DNA from: an uncultured bacterium | GTDB lineage: Bacteria > Bacteroidota > Bacteroidia > Chitinophagales > Chitinophagaceae | Length of the DNA: 64,000 nucleotides | Reading direction: 5' to 3' | Assembly: GCA_963977985.1 (NCBI GenBank) | Contig: CAXBQH010000004.1 | Span: 38,686-102,685, forward strand | In this document: positions 37,821-63,811 of the stretch, in pieces | Layout of the letters: each line of letters begins with the position of its first letter | How positions within the stretch are numbered: position 1 is the first letter of the stretch | Notes under the pieces: generated by a model | The model's input: the letters and a program-made list of their open reading frames with translations, nothing else | Databases searched by the model: none | What the model was told of the DNA's origin: nothing | Made by a program: the position numbers and the translations under genes

Positions 37821-38732
37821 ATGCAAATGTACCAATTATTTGATAGTAGGCCTCCTTTGAGAATGGCCCTTTTTTTAGGTATCACAGGCATAGCTATGTT
37901 GGCAGGTGCCTTCATAAGTTTTTCTATTGTTTGTGCAATTTTACAAATTCCATTTTCCTCTATTCAAAATATATTATTGCAACCTAAGTATGCCACTATG
38001 GCTCAATTGGCCAATGCACTTGCTTCTATCATTGCTTTTGGTTTGCCCAGTGTACTACTTGCATTTTTTATTAAAGGAAATTGGATACACAATATGGGTT
38101 TTAGACCTATTAAATCCTATCCCTCCATAGTGGTGGTTATTTTATTAGCGCTAACAGGATTACTATTAAGTGGCGCTTTAGGTTCAGTCACCGAAAAAAT
38201 TCCAATCCCTGCTCATTTTAAAAATTGGGCCATCAGCTTGGAAGACCAATACAAAAAAGCAATGATCTCGATGACCCATATGTCCTCATTGAAAGATCTA
38301 TTTTTTACATTAACAGCAGTAGCTATTATTCCTGCCATAGTGGAAGAAGTTTATTTTAGAGGTACGCTACAAAAAATTTTATTGGATTGGACAGGTAAGC
38401 CTTTTATAGCAATTATAATAACTGCCATTTTTTTTAGTGCTTTTCATTTTTCTTATTTTGGTTTTTTATCCAGATTAGCTTTAGGCGCTATATTGGGTTA
38501 TATTTATCATTATTCTAAAACTATTTGGCTGCCAATTTTGCTTCACTTTGTAAACAATGGAATTGCGGTAGTAACTTTATACTTATTCAGAAATAGTGCA
38601 ACACCCGTAGAAAAAATAATGGATGATAATTTACCCATTTATTGGGGAGTGGTAGCGCTCATAGGTATTTATTATTTATTCATTCAACTTAAAAATTATT
38701 ATATAGATGCAGGATTGGAAAAAAATATTTAG
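37821..38732 (+). CDS. CPBP/Abi family intramembrane metalloprotease
   Basis: EEVYFRG, FSAFH, HFVNN; multiple TM helices; start uncertain (37821, 37827 or 37863), and the track start at 37764 overlaps dusB. Confidence 0.88.
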   Translation: MQMYQLFDSRPPLRMALFLGITGIAMLAGAFISFSIVCAILQIPFSSIQNILLQPKYATMAQLANALASIIAFGLPSVLLAFFIKGNWIHNMGFRPIKSYPSIVVVILLALTGLLLSGALGSVTEKIPIPAHFKNWAISLEDQYKKAMISMTHMSSLKDLFFTLTAVAIIPAIVEEVYFRGTLQKILLDWTGKPFIAIIITAIFFSAFHFSYFGFLSRLALGAILGYIYHYSKTIWLPILLHFVNNGIAVVTLYLFRNSATPVEKIMDDNLPIYWGVVALIGIYYLFIQLKNYYIDAGLEKNI

Positions 38733-62612: not shown

Positions 62613-63626
62613 TTAAATAGTTGGATCTAGTATAGGAATAGAACGGGGTACTAGATTTTTTACACTTTCAGCAATATGTTTGATATGATCAGGGGTGGTA
62701 CCGCAACAGCCACCTACAATATTTACAAATTTACTTTTAGCCCATTGCTCAATGAAATGAGCTGTTTGAGGAGGCTCTTCATCATATTCTCCCATTGCAT
62801 TGGGAAGTCCCGCATTGGGATAAGCCGAAGTATAACAAGTGGCTATTTGAGAAAGTTCTTCAATATGGCTGCGCATTTCTTTAGCACCTAAAGCACAGTT
62901 TAAACCCACACTTAAAGGTTTTGCGTGTTCCACAGAAGTATAAAAAGCGGCTAAGGTTTGACCACTTAAAGTTCTACCAGAAGCATCGGTAATAGTGCCA
63001 CTTATCATCATTGGTAATTCAGGCCTACCTTCTTTTCTACAAAATTCTTTCACTGCATAAATGGCTGCTTTGGCATTCAAGGTATCAAAAATGGTTTCAA
63101 TTAAAATCACATCCACGCCTGCATCTATGAGTCCGCGAATTTGTTCGGTATAAGCGGCAACCACTTCATCAAAACTAACGGCACGATAACCAGGGTTGTT
63201 TACATCCGGTGATAAGCTTAGCGTTTTATTCAAAGGTCCAATGGAGCCAGCAATATATTTTTCTGTGGCGTTGGGATATTTGCTTTGATACTGTTCAATT
63301 GCTGCCCTTACACATTTTACAGCTGCTACATTCAGTTCATATGCCAATGATTGCATATTATAATCTGCCATAGCAATTGAAGTGCTACTAAAAGTATTGG
63401 TTTCAATAATATCGGCCCCTGCTTCTAAATACTGTAAATGAATTCCAGTAATGATGTCGGGTTGAGTAATACACAATAAATCGTTATTGCCTTTGAGGTC
63501 AGTAGGCCAATCAGCAAAACGGTCACCGCGGTAATCGGCTTCAGTTAATTTATGGCGCTGAATCATAGTACCCATAGCACCATCTATGACCAATATTCTT
63601 TTTTTGAGCGTCTCTTGAATTGACAT
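62613..63626 (-). CDS. Methionine synthase N-terminal homocysteine S-methyltransferase domain (separate gene)
   Basis: DGAMGT, ETNTF, ETIFD, GLNC, PNAGLP, GGCCGT; start ATG 63626 or 63644. Confidence 0.95.
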
Positions 63627-63708
63627 AAATAAATTTTTATGCATACATCCAAAAGAAATCGGAGTAACTAATAATACTATTGAAAAAAAGGGGAGGGTAA
63701 ATAGTATG

Positions 63709-63769
63709 GTTTATTAGTTCTTTTTTTTCCTTTCGGAAGGCAGGTTGAACAATAAACAAATCCACCTGC
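63709..63769 (-). ncRNA. Putative SAM-II/SAM-V-type riboswitch (H-type pseudoknot) upstream of the metH operon
   Basis: Minus strand: P1 GCAGGU/ACCUGC; loop GAUUU; loop GUUUAUU-GUUC pairs with 3' GAAC-U-AAUAAAC with one bulged U; located 5' of Met-synthesis genes and just after a promoter. Confidence 0.72.
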
Positions 63770-63779
63770 AATGCAGATG

Positions 63780-63811
63780 CAAAGTTAATACACTATTGTT
63801 TTACAGCCAAA
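63780..63811 (-). promoter_or_regulatory. Full Bacteroidota promoter: TTTG-N20-TAACTTTG
   Basis: -33 element at 63808-63811, -7 element at 63780-63787, 20-nt spacer. Confidence 0.75.

Follow-up and report, generated by a model that had tools for sequence, protein, structure and literature searches.

A probable SAM-responsive riboswitch upstream of metH in Chitinophagales, a lineage-specific variant of the SAM-II/SAM-V pseudoknot

The 64,000-nucleotide stretch of DNA analysed here (the window; positions 38,686 to 102,685 of contig CAXBQH010000004.1, assembly GCA_963977985.1) stems from an uncultured bacterium of the Chitinophagaceae and carries, on its minus strand at 63769-63709, a pseudoknotted RNA element upstream of metH. 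We consider this element, with a probability of roughly 0.7, to be the aptamer of an OFF riboswitch responding to S-adenosylmethionine (SAM), built on the SAM-II/SAM-V fold and occurring in the order Chitinophagales. The most fitting description is that of a variant of this fold peculiar to Chitinophagales, with a core closest to SAM-V. It is neither a new kind of riboswitch nor a new regulator class, and the hairpin inserted in it is not its unusual part; what is new is a lineage-specific scaffold that is invisible to Rfam, has an invariant U in place of A50 of SAM-V, possesses a long Watson-Crick P2a, and is found with metH only.

Read base by base, the minus-strand RNA forms an H-type pseudoknot in which the loop of the P1 hairpin pairs with the 3' tail (Table 1). 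A preliminary description of this locus had listed a P1 of 6 bp, a GGAUUU L1, a P2 of 11 bp with a bulged U, a hairpin in L3, and an A-run, all of which agree exactly with the sequence. Within the P2 5' strand, AUUGUUC is the counterpart of A18-C24 of SAM-V, and GUUU forms a P2a-like extension. The core of P2, with U63752, U63751, and G63750 paired to C63717-(U63716)-A63715-A63714, is invariant in 56 distinct cores, as are GAUUU and AACUAAUAA. Nested folding of the locus, which is unable to display P1 and P2 together, returned P2 along with the hairpin in L3 (energy z-score -2.6).

SAM-V (Rfam RF01826, crystal structure 6FZ0) is known from metY and bhmT of ‘Candidatus Pelagibacter ubique’ (PMC6061858), and its metY version reads AGGC GCAUUUG AAC UGUAUUGUAC GCCU UGCAUAAAGCA AAA GUACUAAAAAAGG (supplement of PMC6061858). 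When the window element was mapped to the metY contact table of that paper, 16 of 17 nucleotides engaged in the triplex or in ligand contacts were the same. The identical pocket positions include U47 (U63716 in the window), which in SAM-V pairs with the adenine of SAM, and the U9.A48-U20 triple, which turns its O4 atoms towards the sulfonium (PMC6061858); U63713 occupies the position of A50. Except for the extruded C6, GGAUUUG (63763-63757) equals G5 C6 A7 U8 U9 U10 G11 of SAM-V, AUUGUUC equals A18-C24 with A23 changed to U, and GAACUAA equals G43-A49 with U44 changed to A, the SAM-V pair A23-U44 thus appearing as U-A, a compensatory change. Beyond these residues, the two RNAs have in common the H-type pseudoknot, a G-N-A-U-U-U-G third strand, a P2 core of AUUGU-C and G-ACUAA with six pairs and one bulged U, a P3 followed by L3 adenines, a P2a helix that has the ribosome-binding region as its 3' strand, and the control of a methionine-cycle gene. 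A descriptor derived solely from published features of SAM-V and the SAM-II long loops (G-N-AUUUG, 2-8 nt, AUUG plus 2-3 nt complemented before C-U-AA, and no fewer than 4 bp in P1) matched the 2.03-Mb genome once, at the window locus, while ten shuffled genomes gave a mean of 0.3 matches.

There are also differences from SAM-V. A50, which in SAM-V holds the aminoacyl group of SAM and forms a non-canonical pair with A18 (PMC6061858), is replaced by U63713, invariant in all cores and able to form a Watson-Crick pair with A63753, the equivalent of A18. The P2a-like extension is continuous here, with G/U-U-U-U facing A-A-A-C in 4-5 Watson-Crick pairs, and the linker from the third strand to P2a measures 0-1 nt instead of the 2-3 nt of SAM-V. 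Published hallmarks are a P2 of 6 bp, a P1 of 4 bp, and a 3' tail that contains a Shine-Dalgarno sequence for SAM-V, and a P2 of 4 bp and a P1 of at least 6 bp for SAM-II (PMC6061858). The window has the 6-bp P2 and the P3, the latter being absent in many relatives, together with a P1 of 5-6 bp, an unpaired A between P2 and P1, and no Shine-Dalgarno sequence. Furthermore, most members, the window element included, use a distant relay platform, and the range is Chitinophagales rather than marine Alphaproteobacteria. In the assignment originally proposed, a SAM-II/SAM-V type of RNA, the L1 and the UUG / C-U-AA core stand as they were, whereas its leaning towards SAM-II has to be given up, the core being closer to SAM-V.

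Support for the helices comes from pair counts on the 56 distinct cores, which count sequences and not evolutionary events. Compensatory double changes were found in all six P1 pairs and in two of the eleven P2 pairs, eight pairs in total, and in Chitinophagaceae both P1 and P2 are conserved and covary. Paired cells amounted to 95.4%, against 88.3% in shuffles, and sliding the 3' partners by 1-3 columns lowered this value to 27-50%. The two informative P2 pairs lie at both ends of the helix: the bottom pair C63747-G63720 changes from C-G to U-A in 13 sequences and the near-top pair U63756-A63710 from U-A to C-G in five, with no one-sided change in either case, although each of these switches may represent just one or two evolutionary events. 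The covariation of U63756-A63710 shows that this pair forms in some state. One relative (locus L050, genome G118) carries the SAM-V sequence UUGUAC in its P2 5' strand while keeping GAAC in the 3' strand, so that the second pair of P2 becomes an A.A mismatch with no compensation.

A BLAST search with 96 nt against 60 related genomes detected the element throughout the genus, and in all 30 loci fetched from this genus a metH homologue is preceded by invariant GGATTTGTTTATTGTTC and GAACTAATAA(A/T)C, with diverging flanks. A covariance model built from 29 genus sequences with P1 as its sole paired element (R1) scored 86.6 bits at the window locus and detected the element, nearly always as a single copy, in 48 of 301 genomes from the order Chitinophagales. 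These include 27 of the 30 genomes from the family to which the window belongs, spread over many genera, and members of five other families. The core is near-invariant across more than 180 Chitinophagales loci, and a pattern scan with one genome per GTDB species revealed the exact core in at least 120 species. Among the matches listed, nearly all were labelled Chitinophagaceae, Chitinophagales, or unspecifically Bacteroidota, apart from a few evidently mislabelled metagenome-assembled genomes (MAGs), and the genera represented included Sediminibacterium, Ferruginibacter, Chitinophaga, Niabella, Puia, Segetibacter, and Flavihumibacter. Among named records, an uncultured Sediminibacterium MAG comes closest, with 85% identity over 1.1 kb. 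Thirteen weak matches (24-30 bits) outside the order from a class-wide search with R1 were rejected for unrelated contexts and broken cores, many of them apparently coding, and the same unrelated contexts and broken cores led to the rejection of three matches within the order (L217-L219). The element goes beyond chance and is a real, strongly conserved cis-regulatory RNA.

None of the available Rfam models captures it. At gathering thresholds no Rfam family was found over the whole window, and no SAM family appeared at E ≤ 10 on either 301 nt or 73 nt around the locus. RF01826 (gathering threshold 41 bits) did not list the locus at E ≤ 10 in the 73-nt and 301-nt scans or in the whole genome; RF01726 (44 bits) gave no match at the locus and none in 151 genomes of the order; and the locus is absent from the 12 weak genome matches of RF00521 (36 bits). 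The suspicion that standard models may miss this variant was thus borne out for the SAM-II, long-loop, and SAM-V models. In the element's own genome, RF00162 (SAM-I) had no match and RF00521, RF01726, and RF01826 none above cut-off. The best genome match of RF01726 (C34:17056-17112, equal to L039:2557-2613; 25 bits, E 0.015) contains UGCUAA, has three non-canonical P1 pairs, lies within or at the start of an open reading frame (ORF) of 346 aa, and was set aside as probably due to chance.

RF01726, named ‘SAM-II long loops’, was described from Bacteroidetes and marine metagenomes (Weinberg et al. 2010, PMC2864571) and shares with the element the phylum, GAUUUG in L1, UUG / C-U-AA, a conserved single A column between P2 and P1, an A-rich L3, L3 hairpins in some members, and the Bacteroidetes promoter TAnnTTTG, which is marked in the original alignment file. 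It is unlike the element in that its P2b is UUGCA/UGCUAA, its CUAAA is almost always followed by A, and its P2a is set off from P2b by an internal loop; CUAAU also occurs in one seed row among parts 1 and 4 of the four parts of the seed. Classical SAM-II (RF00521; metA and metX, structure 2QWY) is alike in fold, in ligand pocket, and in a P1 of about 6 bp, and differs by a 4-bp P2, the lack of P3 (PMC6061858), and a mostly proteobacterial occurrence. The cores of SAM-V and SAM-II superpose at 0.37 Å (PMC6061858). No description of the variant surfaced in searches of the literature.

The L3 hairpin and the A-run had been presented as an extra insertion, and the structured L3 had been linked to a possible failure of standard models; neither view can be maintained. 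In most SAM-V RNAs, P1 is followed by a P3 hairpin and then by adenines docking in the P1 minor groove (PMC6061858), so that hairpin and A-run correspond to known parts, and RF01726 was itself defined around L3 inserts and includes L3-hairpin members in its seed, for example that of Gramella forsetii. The A-run matches A40-A42 of SAM-V, and relatives are A-rich at this place without being invariant. Among the relatives, the L3 hairpin ranges from absent to about 40 nt and is variable in sequence with complementary arms; since the distance between the P2 strands is spread continuously over 8-37 nt (114 exact-core loci), the hairpin is an optional, variable insertion. Nine relatives without an L3 hairpin likewise matched no SAM family at E ≤ 10, and the hairpin is therefore not the cause of the failure. 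An ordinary member of RF01726 or RF01826, missed solely through its L3 hairpin, is accordingly hardly credible, even though covariance models penalise long insertions: the RF01726 seeds tolerate L3 inserts, a fact that had favoured membership, but the family is blank in the 151 genomes of the order while matching the control, Bacteroides thetaiotaomicron. The scans of the hairpin-less relatives and this search contradict such a reading, as does a second model (R2), for which 13 seed sequences of RF01726 were used and the pseudoknot P2 was treated as base-paired; its score at a single true site, in the relative L062, was no higher than 9.8 bits (E 3.8), and it found nothing at the window locus.

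In these failures also lies the case for an element that senses no metabolite, that is, a leader pseudoknot for a protein or small RNA, or a constitutive structure, whose likeness to SAM-II and SAM-V would be convergent or coincidental. The covariance models give no statistical tie to the SAM-II/V families, and it follows from their failures that the link to known classes rests on the architecture and on short identical motifs. We nevertheless regard this explanation as quite improbable: pocket nucleotides agreeing at 16 of 17 positions within the same topology, a single descriptor match in the genome that falls at a methionine gene against 0.3 expected, and an alternative helix, conserved in its distance and contending for the 3' strand of P2 as in typical switches, all speak against it.

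Regarding the aptamer, P1 would fold first, and GAAC-U-AAUAAAC would then join the P1 loop to make P2, with GGAUUU(G) lying as a third strand in the P2 major groove. By analogy with SAM-V, the adenine of SAM would pair with the bulged U63716, and the sulfonium would lie beside the O4 atoms of the U.A-U triple of U63759, A63715, and U63751, whereby the ligand would fix P2 together with the extension above it, which corresponds to P2a of SAM-V. SAM is our best guess for the ligand because the adenine-binding and sulfonium-facing residues are kept, OFF logic is expected, and the gene makes methionine. The same fold could also serve S-adenosylhomocysteine (SAH) or another adenosyl compound, or fail to discriminate SAM from SAH, which we think rather unlikely. 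The A50 equivalent is an invariant U in 56 of 56 cores at the position where SAM-V binds the aminoacyl group, and the regulon consists of metH alone, both of which would suit another ligand. SAH riboswitches precede, and activate, metH in Proteobacteria. On the other side, both sulfonium-facing uridines and the adenine-binding U have been kept, SAM and SAH do not differ in their amino-acid end, so that the loss of A50 alone would not switch the preference, and an AUG directly after P2, as in some relatives, implies OFF logic, which suits the end product SAM but not SAH. Moreover, substitutions of A50 in SAM-V weaken binding only about 2- to 30-fold (PMC6061858). With a similarly small chance, the element could be a third, separately evolved scaffold on the SAM-II/SAM-V pocket, restricted to Chitinophagales, in which an A-U Watson-Crick pair replaces the A.A pair that binds the aminoacyl group of SAM and ligand recognition may differ. 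If so, the rebuilt amino-acid end could bring a relaxed or shifted specificity, for example for SAH or decarboxylated SAM as well, and might explain the wiring to metH only.

Of 188 distinct loci, 170 carry a TAnnTTTG box, which random 80-nt windows contain in 4.6% of cases, and nearly all of the boxes at these loci end 11-19 nt before GAUUU, while TTG occupies the -33 position in 114 of the 170 related loci with a -7 box. From this conserved spacing the aptamer is predicted to begin essentially at the 5' end of the mRNA, and transcription would start a few nucleotides before P1. A 7-bp hairpin, CAUCUGC-AUU-GCAGGUG (63763-63779, minus strand), overlaps the P1 5' strand and looked terminator-like in our scan; it probably spans the transcription start and is not kept by more distant relatives. 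As already proposed, the element lies about 10 nt after a promoter and 5' of metH, and the Pfam domains identify the two downstream proteins of 337 and 903 aa as together being a split MetH. The first homology-supported AUG downstream is at 63626-63624, with 82 nt between the end of the element and metH. In relatives, metH follows in all 41 matches checked first and in 20 further core-bearing matches, and no other gene was found there. In some genomes of another family (f11; L222 was checked), the element is followed by the pterin/B12 part and not by the homocysteine domain; at L222:158-2833 of genome G046, the part with pterin, B12, and activation domains is read as two ORFs of 179 and 690 aa, being either frameshifted or split again.

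How ligand binding would be read out differs between two platforms. In the direct platform, seen in families f19 and f21 and in part of f11, 0-8 nt separate the P2 3' strand from the AUG, and in L063, L066, and L067 the AUG directly follows AAUAAAC, L063 reading AAACUAAUAAAC-AUG. Bacteroidota ribosomes use an A/U-rich stretch in place of a Shine-Dalgarno site. A ligand-stabilised P2/P2a would bury this landing site in direct-type relatives, following the OFF logic of the published SAM-V model, in which the P2a helix forms on SAM binding and occludes the Shine-Dalgarno sequence. Because the AUG directly follows P2 in L063, L066, and L067, in parallel to that model, OFF logic is favoured for the element as well.

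The relay platform, to which the window's family belongs, has the aptamer 50-270 nt upstream of the AUG. An equivalent of the anti-P2 segment, with the consensus CGUUUAU(U/A)GUUC and thus copy-like of the P2 5' strand, occurs 27-35 nt after P2 in most relatives. In 29 of 50 leaders, its duplex with the 3' strand of P2 scores better than shuffled sequences (p ≤ 0.05); the window duplex has an energy of -7.5 kcal/mol and a p of 0.07. In the window, a locked P2 would keep its 3' strand from the anti-P2 segment (63674-63666) and would probably also stop P3 from pairing with the pyrimidine tract (63658-63647), and the released tract may then close a helix over the start codon and the first codons, leading to less metH translation. 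The exchange between P3, tract, and coding region is inferred from predicted folds: P3 is complementary to 63658-63649 in a predicted alternative pairing, and in the close relatives L010, L016, and L018 the folds pair P3 with the tract when free and the tract with codons 3-5 when the aptamer is blocked. Upon blocking, the predicted accessibility of -15 to +18 falls in 33 of the 50 relay leaders and rises in 4, with a mean drop of 0.07, the leaders being related sequences. The released anti-P2 can pair with the start region, its partner lying at -12 to +4 in L036-L038 and at +14 to +30 in L041, L057, and L033; a partner near the AUG is convincing in some relatives (L036-L038, L041, L057, L049, and L046), but not in the window's subclade. 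With moderate confidence, translational repression appears to be the likeliest output.

A transcriptional output is less likely, yet a serious alternative. The aptamer and the ligand would be the same, the switch would expose or hide a pause signal or a site for Rho loading within the C-rich leader and so cause premature termination, and translation would be affected merely secondarily. The loop of the predicted leader hairpin, 18 nt at 63699-63682, is C-rich and free of G and recurs in relatives, the predicted change in start-codon accessibility is weak for the window, and family leaders measure 50-270 nt, all of which would fit. Against it, the scan for intrinsic terminators in the leader predicted only the hairpin overlapping the P1 5' strand, relatives with an AUG 0-8 nt after P2 leave no room for attenuation, the released anti-P2 pairs with the start region in several relatives as given above, and Rho dependence is speculative. 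More generally, a C-rich, almost G-free stretch between the P2 3' strand and anti-P2 recurs in the window and in L010-L038 (CCCUCCCC, CACCCCCCA, CGCCCCCC, and CUCCCCAAC), often with a U-run after it; this stretch may load Rho or have some other partner.

Several observations weigh against the interpretation as a SAM-responsive OFF switch with a relay to the start codon. The adenine expected after C-U-AA as the aminoacyl contact is lacking, with the invariant U63713 instead, and the exact register of the triplex is uncertain owing to the short linker of 0-1 nt compared with 2-3 nt. Nine of the eleven P2 pairs are without compensatory change, seven of them being invariant and hence uninformative either way. 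None of the SAM models in Rfam gives the locus a score, not even one of about 9-12 bits, and R2 fails too. As for the relay, RNAalifold on 16 close leaders does not recover its helices; the sole structure kept is the start-codon hairpin, six of whose seven predicted pairs are invariant, with no covariation for or against it, and the window's own predicted change in start-codon accessibility is small (0.07). Finally, a regulon of one gene is unusual for SAM riboswitches.

Table 1. Coordinates in the window of the aptamer, its leader, the promoter, and the metH genes.
Feature	Position	Strand	Remark
-33 promoter element TTTG	63808-63811	minus	20 nt upstream of the -7 box
Bacteroidota -7 box TAACTTTG (TAnnTTTG)	63780-63787	minus	ends 10 nt before P1
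P1 5' strand GCAGGU	63764-63769	minus	pairs with 63745-63740, 6 Watson-Crick pairs
L1, predicted third (triplex) strand GGAUUU	63758-63763	minus	runs on into G63757; triplex predicted by homology
P2 5' (descending) strand GUUUAUUGUUC	63747-63757	minus	complementary to 63720-63709
Junction A between P2 and P1	63746	minus	unpaired; A or G across the variant family
P1 3' strand ACCUGC	63740-63745	minus	pairs with the P1 5' strand
P3 hairpin UUCC-GAAA-GGAA in L3	63727-63738	minus	predicted hairpin; one C precedes
A-run (A6), 3' end of L3	63721-63726	minus	read from sequence
P2 3' (ascending) strand GAAC-U-AAUAAAC	63709-63720	minus	11 P2 pairs and a single bulge
Leader hairpin AUACUAUU / AAUAGUAU	63674-63707	minus	predicted in free and aptamer-blocked folds
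Anti-P2 segment UUAUUAGUU	63666-63674	minus	complementary to AACUAAUAA (63719-63711)
Pyrimidine tract UUUCUUUUGGAU	63647-63658	minus	may pair with P3 (63736-63727) or codons 3-5 (63620-63612)
Start-codon hairpin GCAUAAA...UUUAUGU (AUG 63626-63624)	63623-63642	minus	predicted by RNAalifold, 16 close relatives
metH part 1, homocysteine S-methyltransferase domain protein, 337 aa	62613-63626	minus	Pfam PF02574, E 7e-101
metH part 2, pterin-binding, B12-binding, and activation domains, 903 aa	59899-62610	minus	Pfam PF00809, PF02607, PF02310, PF02965

For the organism, the predicted sensor would be the only recognisable SAM riboswitch of its genome, as RF00162, RF00521, RF01726, and RF01826 find none. 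With more than 180 examples, a tight consensus, and clear covariation, a database entry would be easy to prepare. The element extends the SAM-V-like architecture, with P3, a 6-bp P2, and occlusion by P2a, from marine Alphaproteobacteria to Bacteroidota of soil and freshwater, and it shows a possible route for a translational riboswitch that lacks a Shine-Dalgarno sequence: the A/U-rich stretch ahead of the AUG could be buried, or a relay helix could be used. The invariant change from A to U at the aminoacyl-contact position is, moreover, a natural experiment on how the pocket reads the amino-acid end of SAM.

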